Below, piece by piece: positions 23,035-33,273 of a DNA stretch of 41,694 nucleotides; the stretch's first letter is position 1; every line of letters starts with the position of its first letter. The notes beneath the pieces were generated by a model, which did not search any database, was not told the origin of the DNA, and saw nothing but the letters and a program-made list of their open reading frames with translations. The position numbers were made by a program, and so were the translations under genes. Source of the DNA: Candidatus Thorarchaeota archaeon (GTDB lineage Archaea > Asgardarchaeota > Thorarchaeia > Thorarchaeales > Thorarchaeaceae); assembly GCA_016840855.1 (NCBI GenBank), contig JAEORO010000015.1, forward strand, positions 1 through 41,694, in the 5' to 3' direction.

Positions 23035-23814
23035 TTGTACAAGGTATGCCTCACTAATGATGATGGCCCGCGGAGTGAAGGATTGTTAAGACTTGCAGAT
23101 TTTCTAAGTAAGGAAGTAGAGCTGATAGTAGTAGTGCCAGATGCTCAGCGCAGCGCGTCAGGGAAATCATTGACTTTGAAGAGACCAATAAGGATTACTG
23201 AGAAACATGAGAATAATGGATACAAGTTCATCTCACATGATGGTGCACCAGCAGATTCAGTAATACTCGCTCAAGCATTCTATCAGGATATCGACCTTGT
23301 AATCTCAGGTATAAACTCTGGTGCGAATGTAGGATATCAAAGTATTTTGACAAGTGGGACTGTAGGTGCAGCTTTTGAGGCGGCCATTAGAGACCTACCT
23401 GCGATTGCAGCATCTCGTGAAGCTTCACCAAGTGATTGGTTTGAAGCAAAGGGCACGAATGGAGATTGCGAAAAAGCGTGCATCATCATAAGGGACCTTG
23501 CAATGAAGGTCCTAGAAAAAGGATTACCCCAAGGTATCGATATGTTGAATCTGAATTTCCCGCGTAATATTACAGAAAACTCAATGATCATAGTCACCAA
23601 ACCAACCAAAGTTCGGATGCATAATGAAGTAGAAAAAAGAACAGACCCAAATGGTCGTCCATACTACTGGTACCTCGGAATCGAAAAAGATCCCCAACCA
23701 AAATCTGATGCATACGAGGTAATCGTTAATGGAAACATCTCAATTTCTCCGATAATTCTTAATTGGATAGGAGATGCTGAACTTAAGAGCTTAGAAGAGT
23801 TCATGAAGATGTGA
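23035..23814 (+). CDS. surE: 5'/3'-nucleotidase SurE
   Basis: LTNDDG, QRSASG, GAPAD, SGINSGAN, SGTVGAA, LNLNFP, DPNGRPYYW. Confidence 0.95.
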   Translation: MYKVCLTNDDGPRSEGLLRLADFLSKEVELIVVVPDAQRSASGKSLTLKRPIRITEKHENNGYKFISHDGAPADSVILAQAFYQDIDLVISGINSGANVGYQSILTSGTVGAAFEAAIRDLPAIAASREASPSDWFEAKGTNGDCEKACIIIRDLAMKVLEKGLPQGIDMLNLNFPRNITENSMIIVTKPTKVRMHNEVEKRTDPNGRPYYWYLGIEKDPQPKSDAYEVIVNGNISISPIILNWIGDAELKSLEEFMKM

Positions 23815-24811
23815 TCTTCTCCAGCGCACGCCATAATGCATCCACTTTAGGTCGCTGAAGTGAATATCCATCAGAATCAGTTACTATTATCCTATGATCC
23901 GGATTTGCCATAATCCTACCAATAACTCTTGCAGATATTCCTCTTGATTGAACCGTATTCACAACCTCAGTTGAATATTCTTCATCGCAACAGATGATCA
24001 TACAACCACTACTAATTAGCTCTAGCGGATCAATTTTCAACAAGTCACAAATCAGTCTAGTAGTTACATCAATTGGTATAGCATCTCTGTATATCTCAAA
24101 TCCAACATTACTGGCGTCACAGATTTCATGGATTCCTCCTGAGAAACCGCCTTCGGTAGGATCATGCATGGCAGTGACATGACCTGTTTCGAATGCTGCA
24201 AGGCCTTCTGCAACCACGCTAATCTTGTTTCTCAGAGCCTTTGCTTGCGTAATTACTGACATGTCAACCTTCGATTTAAGATAATCTTCACCCTCAGTTG
24301 CGAGAATTGCGGTACCCTCATATGCAATTGATTTAGTGATGATTATCGAGTTACCTGGTTTTGCACCTGATGATGTAACATAGTTTCCTTGATCAGCAAG
24401 TCCCACCATAAACCCGACTATTATTGGTCTATCAATACCATCAGTAATTTCTGAATGACCTCCAGCAACAGCTATTCCAAGCATTGATGTAGCTGCATCA
24501 ATTTGGCTCATTATTCTCTCAAGTTGATCAGCAGTGGTTTTGGTGGGCAACATTATCGTTGCAAGAAACCATCGAGGGGACACGCCAAAAGTTGCAATGT
24601 CATTAGCATTTACATGAACCGCAAGCCATCCTATATCAGATATTGACCCAGTTATTGGATCCGTTGCTGCAATTATGACCTTATCACCAATACGAATTAC
24701 TGATGCATCCTCTCCAAGGCGAGGCCCAAGTAGGACATCTGGATCAGTCATACCCAGTTTTGCAAAGACAATCCTTTGAAGGACTTCAGGTGGAACCTTT
24801 CCAACAAGCAT
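23801..24811 (-). CDS. AIR synthase-related (PurM/HypE/ThiL superfamily) protein
   Basis: GEDA, TDPITG, NANDIA, GGHSE, MHDPTEGG, LISSG. Confidence 0.88.
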   Translation of the reverse strand: MLVGKVPPEVLQRIVFAKLGMTDPDVLLGPRLGEDASVIRIGDKVIIAATDPITGSISDIGWLAVHVNANDIATFGVSPRWFLATIMLPTKTTADQLERIMSQIDAATSMLGIAVAGGHSEITDGIDRPIIVGFMVGLADQGNYVTSSGAKPGNSIIITKSIAYEGTAILATEGEDYLKSKVDMSVITQAKALRNKISVVAEGLAAFETGHVTAMHDPTEGGFSGGIHEICDASNVGFEIYRDAIPIDVTTRLICDLLKIDPLELISSGCMIICCDEEYSTEVVNTVQSRGISARVIGRIMANPDHRIIVTDSDGYSLQRPKVDALWRALEKITSS

Positions 24812-24819
24812 CTAATATA

Positions 24820-24944
24820 CACCTCTATAGGAGGTGCGCACAGATCATGTGCCTGATGCATGAAAAGCAGATTCATAGCAACCCAATTTTGGGCTCTCCT
24901 CGCTCACTATGACACCAGGCATCACTCTGACCTTGTGCGCATCT
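24820..24944 (-). promoter_or_regulatory. Candidate structured 5' leader RNA with SD-sequestering hairpin
   Basis: Nested complementary segments with several G.U pairs only on the minus strand; CACCUC can pair with SD GAGGUG. Confidence 0.5.
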
Positions 24945-24998
24945 TAGAAACCGATTTCGTGCTAATAACATAATCGAGAATGGCACTGTTATAGATTA

Positions 24999-26477
24999 TT
25001 ATCGAGGAAGATAGGTTTCTACTTGACGGAGGTCTTGTTCTCGTAAGCGAGTCCTAGATAGACTAGCACTAAGAAGTGTTCGTAGGATTGATTTTTCCTT
25101 GAGTAGGTCACGAGAAAGGTAAGCACGACCACCTGCAGCTCTAGCGACAAGGTATGCGCCAAATGTCTTTCTGAATTCATCAACCATAAGGATGGTTTCG
25201 ATAGTATCATGCAAACCCTCCTTCTTCATTCTCAATGTGGCGGCTAGCTCGAGAGCTTCATGGTATGGACGCTTCAGAAAACGAGGCCATTTAGATTGCT
25301 CAGAATCGACATTGACAGCTGCAAGCCGAACTTTTGCTTTCCTAACCAATCGTGCAGTACGAACAAGGTCTTGAACAGGTGTATATTGCTCATGACCAGG
25401 ACCAGCGGATTGAGCAAGAGGAATATTGGGAGAGAAATCTGAAACTAGTATCAAAAGGGGTTCGATGTCGTTGTTACGCATGCGTTCTCTCCGAATTGTA
25501 TCAAGGGACTTCTTGAGAGCCTCAGCTAAAGGTGTAAGCCCTGAAATCTTAAGACGCCCCAAAGCTCGATAGATTTTGTTCCAATTAGTTGTTGGTGCTT
25601 GAATCTCAACAGCTCCACTATCTTTGAAAGCAATAATCCCAGTACGATCCTTTGATCCTCTTGTTTCACTCTCTATTCTTTCAAGAAATTCTCTGACCTC
25701 TTCCATACTACCTTTCATTGAGAGACTTACATCAATTACAAGAATGATTGTGAGTGGTGTGCGTCCTGTAAAAACACTCTCACGGAGATCTGCTTTCTTA
25801 ATCTTGAGTGAACCATCGGATTTCTTCCCAGTTCGTGCGATTGCGGCCATTATGGTGGATGGGACATGTATACTTCCTACTTCTCCAGTCGGAATTCTTG
25901 AACGAACAGGTCTACCATATTTTATTGTGTCGGAGGACTTTAGAGACCCTACTGCTCTTGAGCTAATTCGTTTCTTGATCCAACCACCTGATGAAACCCG
26001 TGCTCGGATCATCGCCCTTTTTCTCAACATATCCAAATCGAATAGTTCTTCGCCTGTGTCAATGTCTGGCATCTTCACAAAGAATAAATCATCCAATCCA
26101 AAAGGTGCTTCTCTAATTTCAGATTTGGGACCTGATACCATATCCGGCGTTTGAGGGGTATATGGTCTCGTTGCTAGACCCCACTCATCACCTGGTTCTG
26201 GCTTCCCTCCACCAGGTTCTACAGTATCGATGCCTGCAGCAGGTCCACTGCTTCTACGGGTCATAACATCCAACCATTTCCTGACTACATACCACAAAAT
26301 AGGAGCAATAACAATACTATCAATAATCAAAGCCGGCGCTGAGGGGAACTGAAAAATCGGAACTCCAAGAATCCAGTTGATAGGACTTACATAGAGCCAT
26401 GCAAGATAGATGAAGAAAACCACCATCATTACTGCAATGATAGTTCCTTTAATGGGATCACCCTGAGGACTCCTCAC
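24999..26477 (-). CDS. VWA-domain protein (ChlD/BchD C-terminal-like) with two N-terminal TM helices
   Basis: MIDAS DVSLSM, GLTPLAEAL, LVSD; upstream TIMAAI...DLRESV motif as in ChlD; hydrophobic N-terminus. Confidence 0.85.
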   Translation of the reverse strand: MRSPQGDPIKGTIIAVMMVVFFIYLAWLYVSPINWILGVPIFQFPSAPALIIDSIVIAPILWYVVRKWLDVMTRRSSGPAAGIDTVEPGGGKPEPGDEWGLATRPYTPQTPDMVSGPKSEIREAPFGLDDLFFVKMPDIDTGEELFDLDMLRKRAMIRARVSSGGWIKKRISSRAVGSLKSSDTIKYGRPVRSRIPTGEVGSIHVPSTIMAAIARTGKKSDGSLKIKKADLRESVFTGRTPLTIILVIDVSLSMKGSMEEVREFLERIESETRGSKDRTGIIAFKDSGAVEIQAPTTNWNKIYRALGRLKISGLTPLAEALKKSLDTIRRERMRNNDIEPLLILVSDFSPNIPLAQSAGPGHEQYTPVQDLVRTARLVRKAKVRLAAVNVDSEQSKWPRFLKRPYHEALELAATLRMKKEGLHDTIETILMVDEFRKTFGAYLVARAAGGRAYLSRDLLKEKSILRTLLSASLSRTRLREQDLRQVETYLPR

Positions 26478-26497
26478 TCCTTCCGGAGTTTTTTTTT
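26457..26497 (-). other. Candidate -1 frameshift signal: A9 run followed by hairpins
   Basis: GGC AAA AAA AAA CTC CGG AAG GAG TGA; -1 frame reads ACT CCG GAA GGA GTG AGG AGT CCT into the VWA ORF. Confidence 0.6.
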
Positions 26498-27667
26498 GCC
26501 TTCTTGTTTTCCAGAAGTTGCAAATCTGGATCCTCGACCAAAGCGACCTCCACTGATTCGAGCACCAGATTTATCGTCATCCTCTTCTGGAACCTCGGTA
26601 GGAGATTTTCGTCGCTCTGTTTTCTGAGCTACATCTACAGCTTTTGTTATCGCTTGATCTACATCTTCTGGAGAGGGAGGTTCTAACAGTCCACCACGAC
26701 GAGTCCTATGACTAAGTACAAGTTGTGATGCAAGCTTCATATCATCAAGTGTAACCTGCTTGCGTCCCTCGAGTGCAGCATTTGTGATTGCAGCTTTACT
26801 AATGATGATATCTGGTCTAACACCATCTACTTCGAGAGCATCGCAAGCCATTGCAATTGCTCTCAAATTTACATCAGGCAGAACTACTTCTCGGAGTATT
26901 TCTTTAGCTTGGATTATTCTATCACGAAGCTCTGCTTGTTGAGCTGCCCAGCATTCTCTGAATTTGTCAGGATCTTCTTCGAACGCAAGATTTCTCCTAA
27001 CGAGTTCCATTCTTTCTTCAATTGAATGATGACTTCCAACAGCGACATGAAGTGGAAATCGATCTAATAGCTGTGGTCTTAGCTCACCTTCTTCTGGATT
27101 CATAGTGCCGATTAAGACAAAATCTGATGGATGAGCTATTGAGATGCCTTCACGTTCAATCACATTGATCTTTGTTGCTGCTGCATCAAGGAGGTCATCA
27201 ACAAGATGATCTGGAAGTAGGTTCACTTCATCTACATAAAGGACATTCTGATGAGCCTCAGCGAGTATTCCAGGCCGAAGAGCTTGAATTCCATCTTGTA
27301 ATACTCTTTCAATATCAAGTGCTCCAATCAATCGATCTTCAGTTGTTGAGAGCGGGAGATTCACAACCCTCATTTTTCTTGATTCAGATTGTATCTTTTT
27401 TCCAGATTCAAGATTAGTTCTACATTCTTCACATAAGAAATCATGATTGTTGGGGTTACAACCAAACCTGCATCCTACCACAACTTCTACTTCAGGTAAG
27501 AGGTCTGCTAACGCTCGCACTACGGTCGTTTTCCCAGTGCCTTTTGGACCAGATACAAGGACACCACCAATTTGTGGGTTAATACCATTAAGAATGAGGG
27601 CAAGCTTTAATCGCTCAAGACCGACTAGAGATGTGAAAGGTAATGTTGTCCGTCTTAGCTCGCCCAT
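26474..27667 (-). CDS. Mg/Co-chelatase subunit I (ChlI/BchI)-like AAA+ ATPase
   Basis: GGVLVSGPKGTGKT, TEDRLIGALD, LYVDEVNLL, EREGIS, MNPEEGELRPQLLDRF. Confidence 0.93.
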   Translation of the reverse strand: MGELRRTTLPFTSLVGLERLKLALILNGINPQIGGVLVSGPKGTGKTTVVRALADLLPEVEVVVGCRFGCNPNNHDFLCEECRTNLESGKKIQSESRKMRVVNLPLSTTEDRLIGALDIERVLQDGIQALRPGILAEAHQNVLYVDEVNLLPDHLVDDLLDAAATKINVIEREGISIAHPSDFVLIGTMNPEEGELRPQLLDRFPLHVAVGSHHSIEERMELVRRNLAFEEDPDKFRECWAAQQAELRDRIIQAKEILREVVLPDVNLRAIAMACDALEVDGVRPDIIISKAAITNAALEGRKQVTLDDMKLASQLVLSHRTRRGGLLEPPSPEDVDQAITKAVDVAQKTERRKSPTEVPEEDDDKSGARISGGRFGRGSRFATSGKQEGKKKLRKE

Positions 27668-27751
27668 CAGTATCACTTTTAGCTATATTTCCGCGGAAAT
27701 AGAGTGATAGTTACAAATAAGGCTAAGTGTTCATGTAATATAGTGAGTGTT

Positions 27752-28906
27752 TTGATATCGTACATCTCACACCTGGAATGTCCGCAATGCAGAAGAAAGC
27801 ATTCACCTGAAACTATGGCGACATATTGTATTTGCGGATCTCCCCTCTTCGCCATATACAACCTAGATGGTGTACAAGATGCTCTTACAAATAGTGAGTT
27901 TCCCTCAGAAATGAATTCCATGTGGAGATATTCACAACTTCTGCCAGTGAAATCTCCTTCTTGTGTGATTAGTCTTGGTGAAGGATGGACACCTCTAATT
28001 CTATCAAGGCGGCTTGGAAAGCACATTGGTCTCCAGATGCTTCGTATTAAAGATGAAGCCCAAAATCCAACTGCAAGCTTCAAGGACAGAGGTCTCTCTG
28101 CAGCTGTTTCAAGGCATTTCGAACTGGGAGCAAAAGCCTTTGCCCTACCTTCAGCCGGAAATGCTGCAGTTTCTGCAAGTGCATATGCGGCAGCAGCAGG
28201 GCTAGAAGCACATATCTTCATGCCTGATGATACTCCAGAGCCATTCTTTCAGCAATGCGAACTTTTTGGCGCGAAAACAACCAGAGTGAAGGGAACCATA
28301 TCAGAAGCAAGTAAAGTCATGAACGAGCAAAACGGGAACTGGACTGATTTATCGACAACAAAAGAACCCTATCGCGTAGAGGGTAAGAAAACTCTTGGCT
28401 TTGAAATATGTGAACAACTAGGGTGGTCAGTACCGGATGCCATCATCTGTCCAACAGGTGGTGGTACTGCGATTATAGGTATTTGGAAAGCCTTTGATGA
28501 ACTTGAAGCGATTGGATTAATTGGTTCTGAGAGACCTAGAATGTACGCTGCGCAAAGTGGGGGATGTGCTCCTATAGTTCGAGCTATAGAGAAGGGGACT
28601 GATGATATTGAGCCATGGGTAAACGGTGAAACAGAGGCTTTTGGGCTGAGAGTGCCCAATCCATTTGCTGGTAGACTCATACTCAATGTAATAAGGAATT
28701 CAAAAGGAAGTGCAGTGGCTGTAGCTGACCAAGAAATTGGACCCGCTAGGAGGACTGCAGCAAAACTAGAGGGACTCGATTTTTGTCCCGAATCAGCTGT
28801 TGGTATATGCGGACTTTGGAACTTGATTGAGTCTGGTAAGATAGATTATGACGAAGATGTTGTTCTACTTAATACTGGAAGTGGAGCTAAATATACAAAC
28901 CAGTAG
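27752..28906 (+). CDS. thrC: Threonine synthase (PLP fold II) with N-terminal Zn ribbon
   Basis: SLGEGWTPL, NPTASFKDRG, SAGNA, YRVEGKKT, PTGGG, LNTGSG; likely TTG start at 27752. Confidence 0.9.
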   Translation: MISYISHLECPQCRRKHSPETMATYCICGSPLFAIYNLDGVQDALTNSEFPSEMNSMWRYSQLLPVKSPSCVISLGEGWTPLILSRRLGKHIGLQMLRIKDEAQNPTASFKDRGLSAAVSRHFELGAKAFALPSAGNAAVSASAYAAAAGLEAHIFMPDDTPEPFFQQCELFGAKTTRVKGTISEASKVMNEQNGNWTDLSTTKEPYRVEGKKTLGFEICEQLGWSVPDAIICPTGGGTAIIGIWKAFDELEAIGLIGSERPRMYAAQSGGCAPIVRAIEKGTDDIEPWVNGETEAFGLRVPNPFAGRLILNVIRNSKGSAVAVADQEIGPARRTAAKLEGLDFCPESAVGICGLWNLIESGKIDYDEDVVLLNTGSGAKYTNQ

Positions 28907-30808: not shown

Positions 30809-31474
30809 CTAACTCTCTTTTTCTCTCGCTCTCTCTTCACGTGCTTCTTTTTCAAGATCTGCTAGTAACTCATCAATACGTTTCTCATCTGAAGCTTCAC
30901 CTTTACTAGTCTTTGAAGGCATAGCACTTTCAGTTTCAAGAGGGGGGAGGACACCTTCTTTCTCAAGCAATACTTCCGCTTCCATTGCTTCCAACTGTCT
31001 GTCTATTCTCTCCTCATCTTCAATAGTCGAATCTGCTCCAGACAGATCCTCAGAGAGTAACTCACCAGCAATGGAGATATGTTCAAAGGATTCGGACAGC
31101 TTATCTAACTGAGTCTGAATTTCTTCTGGTCGTAGCATTGACCGTGCCTCAGTCAGAGCATCGTTTGCTATAGTAAAGGCTCGTAGAACTTCAGCTTGGG
31201 TTTTAGCTTCTTCCAAGTTTAGTAATGCAGTTTCCAATGTAAGAAACTGCTGCTGATAACGAGACTTTCGATTTTCAAGATCCACAACAATTGTAAGATG
31301 AGACCTTGCCATTGAGCGATTACCCTGAGCCATAGCTTCCTTTGCAGACTTTTGTTCCTCTATCATTCTAGTTTCAAGTCTGCGCATCCTCAAGGTCAGA
31401 GCGTTCATTGTGCCCTTCATCTCAAGGATTCCTCGTTCTGCATCTACTTTTTTCTTACCACTAAGAAAGCCCAT
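30809..31474 (-). CDS. ESCRT-III Snf7-family protein (Vps20/32/60-like)
   Basis: MGFLSGKKK start, helical hairpin AKEAMAQGNRSMARSHL...LETALLNLEEAKTQAEVLRAF, acidic tail with LPPL and IDELLADLE. Confidence 0.85.
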   Translation of the reverse strand: MGFLSGKKKVDAERGILEMKGTMNALTLRMRRLETRMIEEQKSAKEAMAQGNRSMARSHLTIVVDLENRKSRYQQQFLTLETALLNLEEAKTQAEVLRAFTIANDALTEARSMLRPEEIQTQLDKLSESFEHISIAGELLSEDLSGADSTIEDEERIDRQLEAMEAEVLLEKEGVLPPLETESAMPSKTSKGEASDEKRIDELLADLEKEAREERAREKES

Positions 31475-31539
31475 TTGTTCCACCAAGTTTGCCTTACGAT
31501 TCTATCTCCTTACTTGACGCATTTAAGGTATTGTAATCA

Positions 31540-31590: not shown

Positions 31591-32403
31591 ATGACAATAC
31601 TCAGGATAGTCCAAGATGCAATAGCAGCGGCTAAGACAGTCATCATTGAGAATCTTGACAAAGCAGCACAAAGAACAGGTGATATGAATCCATTTGGTGA
31701 ACAGACTCTTCTTCTTGATAGAAAAGCGGAGGACACAATTATCGAAGTCTTTTCTGGTTCTAGTACTGATTTTGATATTTTGACTGAGGAAAAAGGTTTC
31801 ATTAAGATTAGAAAAAAACCAGAATACCTAGCAATTATTGACCCAATTGATGGATCAATTAACTTGGAAAGAGGAATCCCGCTTTCTTCTATTGGTGTTT
31901 CAGTAGTCCCCTACAAAGATGCCATGACATCAGATGATATTGAAATTAGCATGATAGATTCACTGTTTACAAATGAAACTTTCACAGCAATTACAGGAAA
32001 AGGCGTGACTAGAAATGGTATTCGAATTCGTCCATCAGCTACTGTTAAACTCCAAGATGCGATAATCTCATGCAACACAAAAAAGACTTGGGACCAAGAC
32101 TATTTGAAGCGGACGATGAGTACTATTAGTGCAGTTCAGGATTTGAGAAGAACTGCGAGTCCACTTTTAGACCTCTGCTGGACAGCTGCAGGATTCATTG
32201 ATGGAATGGTGGACCTAAGAGATATGCTCCCAATAATTCATCTCTGTGGCACACATATGGTTTTTGAAGCTGGTGGTTTTGTATTCGATAAGAATGACAA
32301 TCGATTTTGTGAACCAATAGAACCAAACAAGATGATGAATTTCGTGGCTGCATCCAATGAAGCATTAGCTAGACAAATCTTAGCTAAATTCAAGGGTGAC
32401 TAG
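31591..32403 (+). CDS. Inositol monophosphatase / FBPase class IV family protein, paralog 1
   Basis: DRKAE, ILTEE, IDPIDGS, EAGG. Confidence 0.88.
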   Translation: MTILRIVQDAIAAAKTVIIENLDKAAQRTGDMNPFGEQTLLLDRKAEDTIIEVFSGSSTDFDILTEEKGFIKIRKKPEYLAIIDPIDGSINLERGIPLSSIGVSVVPYKDAMTSDDIEISMIDSLFTNETFTAITGKGVTRNGIRIRPSATVKLQDAIISCNTKKTWDQDYLKRTMSTISAVQDLRRTASPLLDLCWTAAGFIDGMVDLRDMLPIIHLCGTHMVFEAGGFVFDKNDNRFCEPIEPNKMMNFVAASNEALARQILAKFKGD

Positions 32404-32410
32404 TTAAACC

Positions 32411-32430
32411 CTACCCAACAAGTGATATAG
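32411..32430 (+). promoter_or_regulatory. 20-bp upstream element, copy 2
   Basis: Identical to 31540-31559; ends 30 nt before the ATG. Confidence 0.7.
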
Positions 32431-32460
32431 AGCCATCAAATACAAACAATATGATGGCAG

Positions 32461-33273
32461 ATGACTCTTCATAGGACCATTCAGGATGCGGTTCAAGGTG
32501 CAAAGCAGGAAATAATTGAGAATCTTGACATTGCTAGAGAACTCACAGGTAAACTAAATCCCTACGGAGACAAAACTCTCACGCTAGATGCTAAAGCGGA
32601 GGATGCCATAATCGATGTACTCACTAGTTCTGGAACTTCTTTTCAGATTCTGACAGAAGAGAGTGGATTCATCAAGAGCGAGCGCAAGCCCGAGTATCTT
32701 GCGCTGATTGATCCAATTGATGGGTCAGCCAATCTCGAACGAGGAATTCCTTTGGTTTCAATTGGCATATCAGTGGTTCCTTTCAATGACCTCATGACAT
32801 CTGACGATGCTGAAATCAGTGTCATTGAATCAGTTTTTACAGATGAAACATATATTGCAGTCACAGATAGAGGTGTGACAAGAAACGGTTTAACCGTTAA
32901 GACATCAGCTCCAATCGATGTCAATAATGCAATAATATCGTATGATACAAAGAAGACTTGGGATATGGATTTCATGAAAAGGTCACTGAGAGCTATTGGT
33001 TCAGTTCATGATATTAGAAGAACTGCAAGTAATCTTCTTGACCTCTGTTGGACAGCAGCTGGTTTCATTGATGGAATGGTAGACCTCAGGAATATGCTGC
33101 CTATCATTCATCTTTGTGGAACACACATGGTATTTACAGCTGGAGGTTTTGTATTGGACGTAAACGGAACTCGCTTTTCAGCTGTCCTTGAACCGAAAAC
33201 TATGATGAATTTTGTTGCAGCATCCAACGAAACACTTGCTCGCCAAATCTTAGATAAATTCAAAGAAAGCTAA
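32461..33273 (+). CDS. Inositol monophosphatase / FBPase class IV family protein, paralog 2
   Basis: Same length (270 aa) and collinear with paralog 1; IDPIDGS. Confidence 0.88.
   Translation: MTLHRTIQDAVQGAKQEIIENLDIARELTGKLNPYGDKTLTLDAKAEDAIIDVLTSSGTSFQILTEESGFIKSERKPEYLALIDPIDGSANLERGIPLVSIGISVVPFNDLMTSDDAEISVIESVFTDETYIAVTDRGVTRNGLTVKTSAPIDVNNAIISYDTKKTWDMDFMKRSLRAIGSVHDIRRTASNLLDLCWTAAGFIDGMVDLRNMLPIIHLCGTHMVFTAGGFVLDVNGTRFSAVLEPKTMMNFVAASNETLARQILDKFKES

Follow-up and report, generated by a model that had tools for sequence, protein, structure and literature searches.

Single-hairpin archaeal box H/ACA small RNAs, such as Pab91 and Pf9 of Pyrococcus, have a lower stem, a two-stranded pocket, a 6-bp upper stem, a kink-turn (K-turn) with a variable hairpin cap, an ACA box 3' of the lower stem, a 14/15-nt ruler, invariant guides and a free 3' tail after the ACA (PMC2377435, PMC7991803). 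In the motif rules given by Muller et al. 2008, the lower stem H1 has at least 7 bp and is flanked by the ACA, each pocket strand has 5-11 nt, and the functional upper stem H2 has 5 or 6 bp, mostly 6. The same rules set the distance from the ANA to the target at 14 or 15 nt, and the 3'-guide duplex matters more than the 5' one (PMC2377435). According to a review, 5-6 nt separate the pocket from the K-turn or K-loop above it (PMC7991803). We analyzed a 41,694-nt stretch of DNA (the window) from Candidatus Thorarchaeota archaeon, an Asgard archaeon (GCA_016840855.1, contig JAEORO010000015.1). On its minus strand, the 5' leader of an AIR-synthase-family (AIRS) gene carried a structured RNA that resembled Pab91 and Pf9 in all of these parts but the free tail, in place of which a 13-bp outer clamp was found. 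With a probability of roughly 0.55, we consider it to be an H/ACA-type ribonucleoprotein (RNP) element that resides in the 5' leader of the AIRS mRNA, or is processed out of it, and is locked by the clamp.

The spacer between a VWA/ChlD-like open reading frame (ORF) and the AIRS ORF was 187 nt long (24812-24998, minus strand). An initial annotation of the window had claimed a structured minus-strand RNA here. Its sequence at 24820-24944 was as given there, and the claim was borne out by the fold and by covariation in homologues. The RNA at 24835-24941 folded into a nested rod with −54.4 kcal/mol in RNAfold, compared with a shuffle mean of −36.8 (z −4.92), and 0/200 shuffles folded as well. The spacer was single-copy in its 3.36-Mb genome, where all remaining blastn matches had E of at least 0.5. 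The single copy ruled out a dispersed miniature inverted-repeat transposable element, which had been raised as an alternative. Four metatranscriptome contig sets gave 0 records for the stretch, a result that says nothing about expression.

The element is a real, strongly conserved structured RNA. With the spacer as a blastn query, 30/36 genomes of the archaeon's own family gave a match, and 0/24 outside the family. A degenerate pattern of the invariant core matched 67 stretches when one genome per species was searched. Sixty-one were Thorarchaeota/Promethearchaeota records (one labelled Hermodarchaeota) or archaeal metagenome-assembled genomes with the whole element, and six were chance matches (four bacterial, one Nitrososphaerota and one Heimdallarchaeota record). 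In metagenomes the pattern matched 46 stretches, 42 of which were real. A covariance model built from 57 sequences matched 92/92 true sources and 0/7 decoys. The alignment made with it comprised 86 distinct sequences, on which all counts out of 86 are based. The element occurred once per genome and lay directly 5' of the same AIRS-family gene in 86/86, consistent with the leader position proposed initially. When 150 sampled Asgard genomes were scanned with the model, 22 of the 26 in the family matched, exactly once each, and 0/124 outside it. The whole-genome scans were insensitive and missed a divergent copy in G037, the only genome of the sister family. This copy was detected with filters off on the fetched upstream region (46.9 bits, E 2e-11). 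Because the scans missed it, absence outside the order rests on a filters-off model search upstream of the orthologous gene, which found none in 9 genomes of 7 other Asgard families. One genome (G004) was left out, as its gene was truncated where the contig ends. No published account of this element emerged from literature searches.

The leader is composed of two parts, an inner 77-nt hairpin (24848-24921) and the outer 13-bp clamp P1+P2. The features were as follows, in transcript order.

24934..24941, minus strand: P1 5' strand UGCGCACA, outer clamp, pairing with 24835-24842; 7/8 pairs double-changed.
24928..24932, minus strand: P2 5' strand GGUCA, second part of the outer clamp, pairing with 24843-24847; 5/5 covary.
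24922..24927, minus strand: 5' side of the P2/P3 internal loop, GAGUGA, consensus G-A-n-A, opposite the CA of the ACA box; G21 in 79/86, A22 in 74/86, A24 in 71/86.
24913..24921, minus strand: P3 5' strand UGCCUGGUG, candidate H/ACA lower stem H1, pairing with 24850-24858; 7/9 double-changed.
24906..24912, minus strand: pocket 5' strand (putative 5' guide) UCAUAGU; columns 40 and 42-45 invariant in 86/86, column 41 in 85/86, column 39 variable.
24900..24905, minus strand: 5' strand of upper stem H2, GAGCGA, pairing with 24865-24870.
24896..24899, minus strand: non-bulged strand of the putative K-turn, GGAG (G52-G53-A54-G55); G53, A54 and G55 in 86/86.
24881..24894, minus strand: P5, the putative K-turn C-stem hairpin GCCCA AAAU UGGGU; 4/5 pairs double-changed, loop sequence variable.
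24873..24878, minus strand: bulged strand of the putative K-turn, CUAUGA, C75-(N76 A77 U78)-G79-A80; C75, U78, G79 and A80 in 86/86, A77 in 84/86.
24865..24870, minus strand: 3' strand of H2, CUGCUU; C87, U88 and U89 invariant.
24859..24864, minus strand: pocket 3' strand (putative 3' guide) UUCAUG; U90-U94 invariant in 86/86, column 95 G in 65 and A in 21.
24850..24858, minus strand: P3 (H1) 3' strand CAUCAGGCA; covariation in 7/9 pairs.
24848..24850, minus strand: ACA box directly 3' of H1; A105, C106 and A107 in 86/86.
24835..24847, minus strand: P2 3' strand UGAUC, then P1 3' strand UGUGCGCA; covariation.
24809..24834, minus strand: linker to the gene with CC, a weak Shine-Dalgarno (SD) hairpin and the ATG; C122 in 86/86.
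24820-24825, minus strand: SD sequence GAGGUG.
24809-24811, minus strand: start codon ATG.

Covariation was measured in two alignments. One was an independent MAFFT alignment of 57 sequences, and the other was the model-based alignment of 86 distinct rows, which is biased toward the structure of the model itself. Pairing was found in 88.3% of cells in the MAFFT alignment and 88.9% in the model-based one. When the 3' partner was shifted by 1-3 columns, pairing dropped to 31-52% and 30-51%, respectively. Double-sided changes were present in 20/37 pairs (MAFFT) and 25/38 pairs (model-based), and 0/500 shuffles attained any of the observed measures in either alignment. Over the 86 sequences, double changes were distributed as 12/13 pairs in P1+P2, 7/9 in P3 and 4/5 in P5. 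Structural conservation in relatives, on which the first claim was staked, was thus present in both alignments.

Covariation supports four of the five helices noted initially, plus one new helix. P1 UGCGCAC/GUGCGCA, P2 AGGUCA/UGAUCU, P3 UGCCUGGUG/CAUCAGGCA and P5 CCCAA/UUGGG were present and covarying. The new helix, GAGNNN/NNNCUU, had been overlooked; 2/6 of its pairs were double-changed and three were invariant. In an all-against-all analysis of mutual information, 9 of the 12 top-ranked column pairs belonged to the structure. P2 pairs held the top scores, and pair 49:86 of GAGNNN/NNNCUU ranked third (C-G in 35, U-A in 28 and U-G in 2 of 86). Divergent members carried compensatory changes in this helix (GAGUAC/GUACUU, GAGUGU/ACACUU), and G037 altered even its otherwise invariant base pairs (GCAGAAU/AUUCUGU). 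The fifth helix, UCAUAGUGA/UUGCUAUGA, would be a pseudoknot (UCAUAG/CUAUGA). It failed, as 0/5 tested pairs covaried, the central pair was unpaired in 58/86, and its UGA/UUG end clashed with the covarying GAGNNN/NNNCUU. It was rejected because the K-turn accounts better for the same invariant bases and for the free bulge position N76 (G 34, U 28, A 23, C 1), which varied as expected for L1. Two other K-turn placements were rejected by eye on the alignment, one at the P2/P3 junction and one from GCGA/UUGC, where column 75 showed no covariation to column 51.

The leader RNA was read as non-coding because frames were rarely open and core lengths were not multiples of 3. The best frame lacked stops in only 22/86 sequences, and core lengths of 97-109 nt varied by single nucleotides. 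The strand was also clear from the pairs. Five G.U pairs were present in the window's own fold, and the family-wide pairing cells held 360 G.U/U.G versus 84 A.C/C.A, which identifies the minus strand as the RNA strand. The initial proposal of RNA-level selection on this strand, drawn from G.U pairs, agreed with these counts.

The inner hairpin was then compared with the archaeal box H/ACA motif. H1 corresponds to P3 and had 9 bp, or 8 when A105 is assigned to the ACA box. The pocket strands were 7 nt (8 nt in 2/86) and 6 nt long. H2 was formed by columns 46-51 with 84-89 and had 6 bp, three of which were invariant and two double-changed. The ACA stood immediately 3' of H1 in 86/86, and it was 14 nt (66/86) or 15 nt (20/86) away from the final base of H2 at the pocket top. 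Measured along the 5' strand, 6 nt would separate the putative K-turn from the pocket below it (7 nt with G52 included). Within this turn, G53-A54/G79-A80 could form tandem sheared pairs next to a 3-nt bulge N76-A77-U78, with a C-stem that would open at G55-C75 (G-C in 86/86) and run into P5. These values agreed with the published rules. A descriptor that we wrote from them found 2 loci in the 3.36-Mb source genome, including the element, versus 1 in the reversed control. Twenty-eight of the 31 invariant columns belonged to the ACA box, the two pocket strands, the base of H2 or the K-turn and its C-stem. The lower stem accounted for one of the other three (C32), and C120 and C122 stood at and just behind the clamp. 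At the pocket edges, positions 39 and 95 varied, and the inner 6 and 5 positions were invariant. Variable edges with a fixed interior are as expected of guide strands facing an invariant target.

The source genome encoded Cbf5 (421.7 bits, over the cut-off) and had two genes of the L7Ae family. Directly beside the Cbf5 gene (contig C183, 32896-33852, minus strand) was the gene for RNase P RNA (32492-32832, minus strand). No match to Rfam HgcG (RF00064) was found in the source genome.

A conserved promoter-like box was found upstream of the leader.

24963..24978, minus strand: promoter-like box CTCGATTATGTTATTA, with a TATA-like TTATTA at its 3' end, ending 21 nt ahead of P1.

Among the 84 homologues with at least 70 nt of upstream sequence, 73 carried the box CTCGATTAnnTTATTA (CGAWK-N2-4-TWAWH), which ended 21-24 nt before P1 (mode 22). 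The remaining 11 had A/T-rich boxes in the same place. Archaeal TATA boxes lie about 26 nt upstream of the transcript start. The box would act as a promoter, and with this spacing the transcript is predicted to begin within the first bases of P1, so that it probably starts at the outer helix. A start downstream of the element would have spoken against a leader RNA; the box predicts a start at its 5' end instead. The CTCGATTA part of the box was more conserved than a TATA box requires, and it persisted in genus g33, where the RNA has been lost. This part may be a B recognition element (BRE) or a regulator site.

The data show the fold with its covariation, the invariant motifs and how they are spaced, the linkage to one gene and the range of taxa. 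From these features we infer protein binding, guide activity, a target and an effect on translation. In the proposed mechanism, L7Ae would bind the K-turn, and Cbf5-Nop10-Gar1 would bind the ACA box, the lower stem and the pocket. The RNA would act as an H/ACA-type RNP made from, or staying in, the 5' leader of its host mRNA. The only conserved candidate for a target would be the uridine equivalent to E. coli U1911 in 23S helix 69. The clamp P1+P2 would join the bases immediately before the SD of the AIRS gene to the transcript's predicted 5' end. The end of P1 was 11-35 nt from the start codon in 86/86, mostly 21-28 nt, and at this distance the bound RNP may also dampen AIRS translation.

The predicted target pattern was 5'-YRUGRR-U-N-RYURUGR-3'. 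The source assembly has no assembled rRNA, and comparisons were made on the rRNA genes of relatives. All 7 nt of the 5' guide were Watson-Crick complementary to ACUAUGA in the loop of helix 69 in 5/5 Thorarchaeota 23S genes examined. This pairing leaves U-N correctly placed and points at the equivalent of E. coli U1911. A 12-bp site in the 23S gene of G001 was rejected, as it lay in a variable hairpin that was not conserved. The full target pattern YRTGRRTNRYTRTGR gave 8 matches in the source genome, about chance level, and RTGRRTNRYTRTG over 41 genomes gave counts near those of the reversed-pattern control.

Helix 69 is already known as a target of an archaeal H/ACA guide. Stem-loop 2 of Haloferax volcanii sR-h45 guides Psi1940/1942 in 23S helix 69 (PMC7075261). 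It is alike in the archaeal H/ACA motif, the K-turn and the ACA, and the helix 69 loop contains UAUG in both organisms. However, UAUG stays unpaired with sR-h45, and the modified uridines correspond to E. coli U1915 and U1917 (PMC7075261). The 5' guide of the present element would instead pair across those uridines toward the U1911 equivalent, with a weak 3' guide duplex.

Several results weighed against this interpretation. The 3' guide, whose duplex is the more important one (PMC2377435), formed 0 contiguous pairs beside the target U at helix 69 in 3/5 genomes and 3 pairs in 2/5. In these two, the position beside the target U was A-U in G110 and G-C in G037, the latter with a U-to-C change in the guide. 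Helix 69 totals of 11-12/13 pairs were equalled by 155/200 shuffles. No other conserved site was found in the 23S/16S rRNA of the relatives examined, the 24 tRNAs called by ARAGORN in the source genome, signal recognition particle RNA or RNase P RNA. The helix 69 target is only half-supported. On the side of the motif, H2 was imperfect, with pair 49:86 unpaired in 21/86 and 50:85 in 29/86. Our own H/ACA descriptor had been relaxed (one bulge, irregular C-stem) after the element was seen. The strict descriptor was passed by only 14/86 family members, because H2 often carries mismatches. A looser descriptor was non-specific (105 matches versus 95 in the control) and was discarded. In addition, the ACA was away from a free 3' end, since the 13-bp clamp, which lies outside the known motif, follows at once. 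The fixed site before the SD and start codon and the link to one gene in 86/86 suit a cis-regulator equally. In genus g33, the element was absent from 3/3 genomes with filters off, and these keep the promoter box and the gene with unrelated leaders. Compared with the Pab91/Pf9 type, the element differs in being the 5' leader of a protein-coding gene, in upper-stem mismatches in a quarter to a third of its members, and in that a two-sided rRNA/tRNA target was not found.

A metabolite or ion riboswitch is a possible but doubtful alternative. The invariant core would be the aptamer, and the ligand would alter access to the SD 8-14 nt after P1. This would suit a structured element in a 5' leader with the transcript start predicted at P1, tied to one enzyme gene in 86/86, with covarying stems that enclose a highly conserved core. 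Pairing is possible between the conserved CC that follows P1 and the GG in the SD, and in one clade a GCGCA copy beside the SD could compete for the P1 5' strand. The initial annotation had pointed out that CACCUC overlaps the P1 3' strand and that the SD GAGGUG lies 8 nt ahead of the ATG, and both statements were correct. However, the CC(U)/(A)GG hairpin with the SD was weak, inconsistent and not universal (0 to −8 kcal/mol), and the 22-bp P1-P2-P3 stack appears too stable for a switch helix. A scan of the window with Rfam 15 gave 0 matches at the gathering score, and relaxing the limit to E of 10 brought up no relevant family. This result agreed with the earlier view, formed by eye, that the TPP, FMN, ZTP, Moco and fluoride consensus sequences are not matched, and the element did not belong to a described class. 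No known RNA family was found upstream of the orthologues at 13 other Asgard loci. No ligand can be inferred, because the AIRS paralogue is uncharacterized in all sources searched and the true ThiL, HypE, SelD and PurL lie elsewhere. A riboswitch would turn three features into coincidences: the K-turn signature, the invariant ACA and its spacing of 14/15 nt. The H/ACA-type RNP is preferred because it gives a role to every invariant block in the hairpin, whereas a riboswitch explains none of them and offers no ligand. Orphan riboswitch candidates such as yjdF (PMC4793209), conserved 5'-UTR motifs whose single linked gene has no assigned function, are alike in their narrow range, conserved structured leader, single gene family and a ligand that is not inferable. 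The present element differs from them by what appears to be the full H/ACA protein-binding signature and by a long stable stack unlike a switching P1. The initial reading was a translational switch or an independent non-coding RNA (ncRNA). The switch part did not hold well, as the H/ACA motif fits better, and the independent ncRNA part was closer to the mark. If the riboswitch reading were right instead, the family would form an archaeal-lineage-specific class of riboswitch, a notable result as well.

It is rather unlikely that the leader is a translational operator that depends on a protein and lacks guide activity. Here, L7Ae or another K-turn- or helix-binding protein would repress or stabilize the AIRS mRNA, and the H/ACA likeness would be partial or vestigial. 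Binding of L7Ae to K-turns in archaeal 5' untranslated regions has been reported. The K-turn signature was invariant, the element was fixed right before the SD, and no good pseudouridylation target was found. The clamp GCGCA/UGCGC and the G-A-n-A loop were conserved beyond pairing needs. These observations would suit an operator, but a plain K-turn operator needs neither an invariant ACA at 14/15 nt nor two invariant pocket strands. The H/ACA-type RNP accounts for both.

Another stable ncRNA that shares the gene's promoter (a processing signal, a helix 69 RNA chaperone, or a tRNA-end mimic via the GCGC-A-CC tail) is improbable; a terminal stem that links the predicted 5' end to the conserved A-C-C tail and a promoter-like box of its own would suit it, but it has no positive evidence beyond what the H/ACA motif covers, an oligo-T terminator after P1 was absent, and inspection of the alignment showed no bulge-helix-bulge splice motif in P1/P2.

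The clamp terminated in GCGC-A-CC (24833-24835, minus strand, columns 120-123), with C120 and C122 invariant in 86/86. This end resembles an acceptor stem with a discriminator and CC. The PUA domain of Cbf5 is reported to use the tRNA CCA end (PMC2018633). The clamp-terminal CC could equally be an anti-Shine-Dalgarno sequence.

If the H/ACA interpretation is true, Thorarchaeota would have an H/ACA-type RNA built into a messenger leader and locked by an extra helix. Literature searches found no report of such a leader-embedded, clamped arrangement for archaeal guide RNAs. It would bear on guide-RNA production in the closest archaeal relatives of eukaryotes, in which guides ride in host-gene transcripts, and on RNP assembly that doubles as gene control. 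In eukaryotic snoRNA host genes, the guide RNA is located in an intron and is released by splicing. The element is alike in that a guide-type RNA lies inside the transcript of a protein-coding gene, and it differs in its position in the 5' leader, where no splice or bulge-helix-bulge signal was seen. A bulge-helix-bulge motif has two 3-nt bulges on opposite strands around a 4-bp helix; in P1/P2 the 5' strand had a bulge of only 0-1 nt, and the 3' strand had no bulge. We regard it as a speculative idea, and not a likely one, that an H/ACA-type RNP acts in cis on this Asgard mRNA leader, either as a prokaryotic precursor of the eukaryotic 'snoRNA host genes' or as a translational operator that sets AIRS expression via bound pseudouridylation proteins. 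The element is a compact, testable object of 115 nt.

The genes on both sides of the leader were as follows.

23801..24811, minus strand: AIR-synthase-family gene, 336 aa, with Pfam AIRS and AIRS_C matches.
24999-26477, minus strand: VWA/ChlD-like ORF, preceded by a ChlI-like AAA+ ORF.

The AIRS gene is widespread. It was found in 103/151 genomes at E up to 1e-60 and in 26/26 within the family, and its product begins with M-L-P-G-K-V-P-P in homologues. It was the sixth AIRS-family paralogue of the source genome. The protein fell below every NCBIfam cut-off and was nearest to HypE (127.5 bits versus a 251.6-bit cut-off; PDB 2z1e at 4e-22), and it lacked the C-terminal Cys motif of HypE. Searches of a protein atlas, the PDB and homologues gave only the name 'AIR synthase family protein'. 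Elsewhere in the source genome, ThiL, HypE (with a C-terminal PRVC) and SelD were found over their NCBIfam cut-offs. PurL was recognized from its domain structure, and a methanogenesis-marker-2-like gene scored below its cut-off. The presence of true copies led us to reject ThiL, HypE or SelD as the identity of the AIRS gene. Replacement of PurM, which would hint at a purine ligand, was also rejected. PurM was over the cut-off in 8/24 same-genus genomes searched, and 7 of these 8 also carried the element by blastn. The source genome has lost PurE-PurM, PurD and GuaA together. Public calls of the AIRS protein are often 353-394 aa long, compared with 336 aa here, as the ORF is extended upstream into the structured leader.

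At 13/14 wider loci, ChlI/VWA genes lay upstream of the leader, as a pair or as a fused ORF (G001); Pfam was used for this assignment only for the window's own genes. In G029, a divergent pyridoxal-phosphate (PLP) enzyme gene took their place. Since the upstream gene differs there, the element belongs to the downstream gene.

Further observations concerned other genes of these genomes. The purine operon was shortened in the source genome (contig C64, ~25000-28600, locus L222), where a deacetylase gene directly followed PurL. In G002 (L223) the order was PurF, PurP, PurP, PurC/S, PurQ, PurL, a PurE-PurM fusion, PurD, GuaA and the deacetylase gene. For SelD (contig C21, ~32070-33200, L154), the first start gave 288 aa that matched the profile from position 58, so that the N-terminal part lay outside the called ORF. 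The open frame extended to 329 aa only, and an in-frame selenocysteine (TGA) codon upstream is one possible cause. In addition, a Snf7/ESCRT-III family gene was located in a conserved neighborhood (30809-31486 in the window, minus strand; 4214-4882 in L164), together with HAD hydrolase, Na/Ca exchanger, PLP enzyme, SurE, PNP and phosphoribosyltransferase genes.

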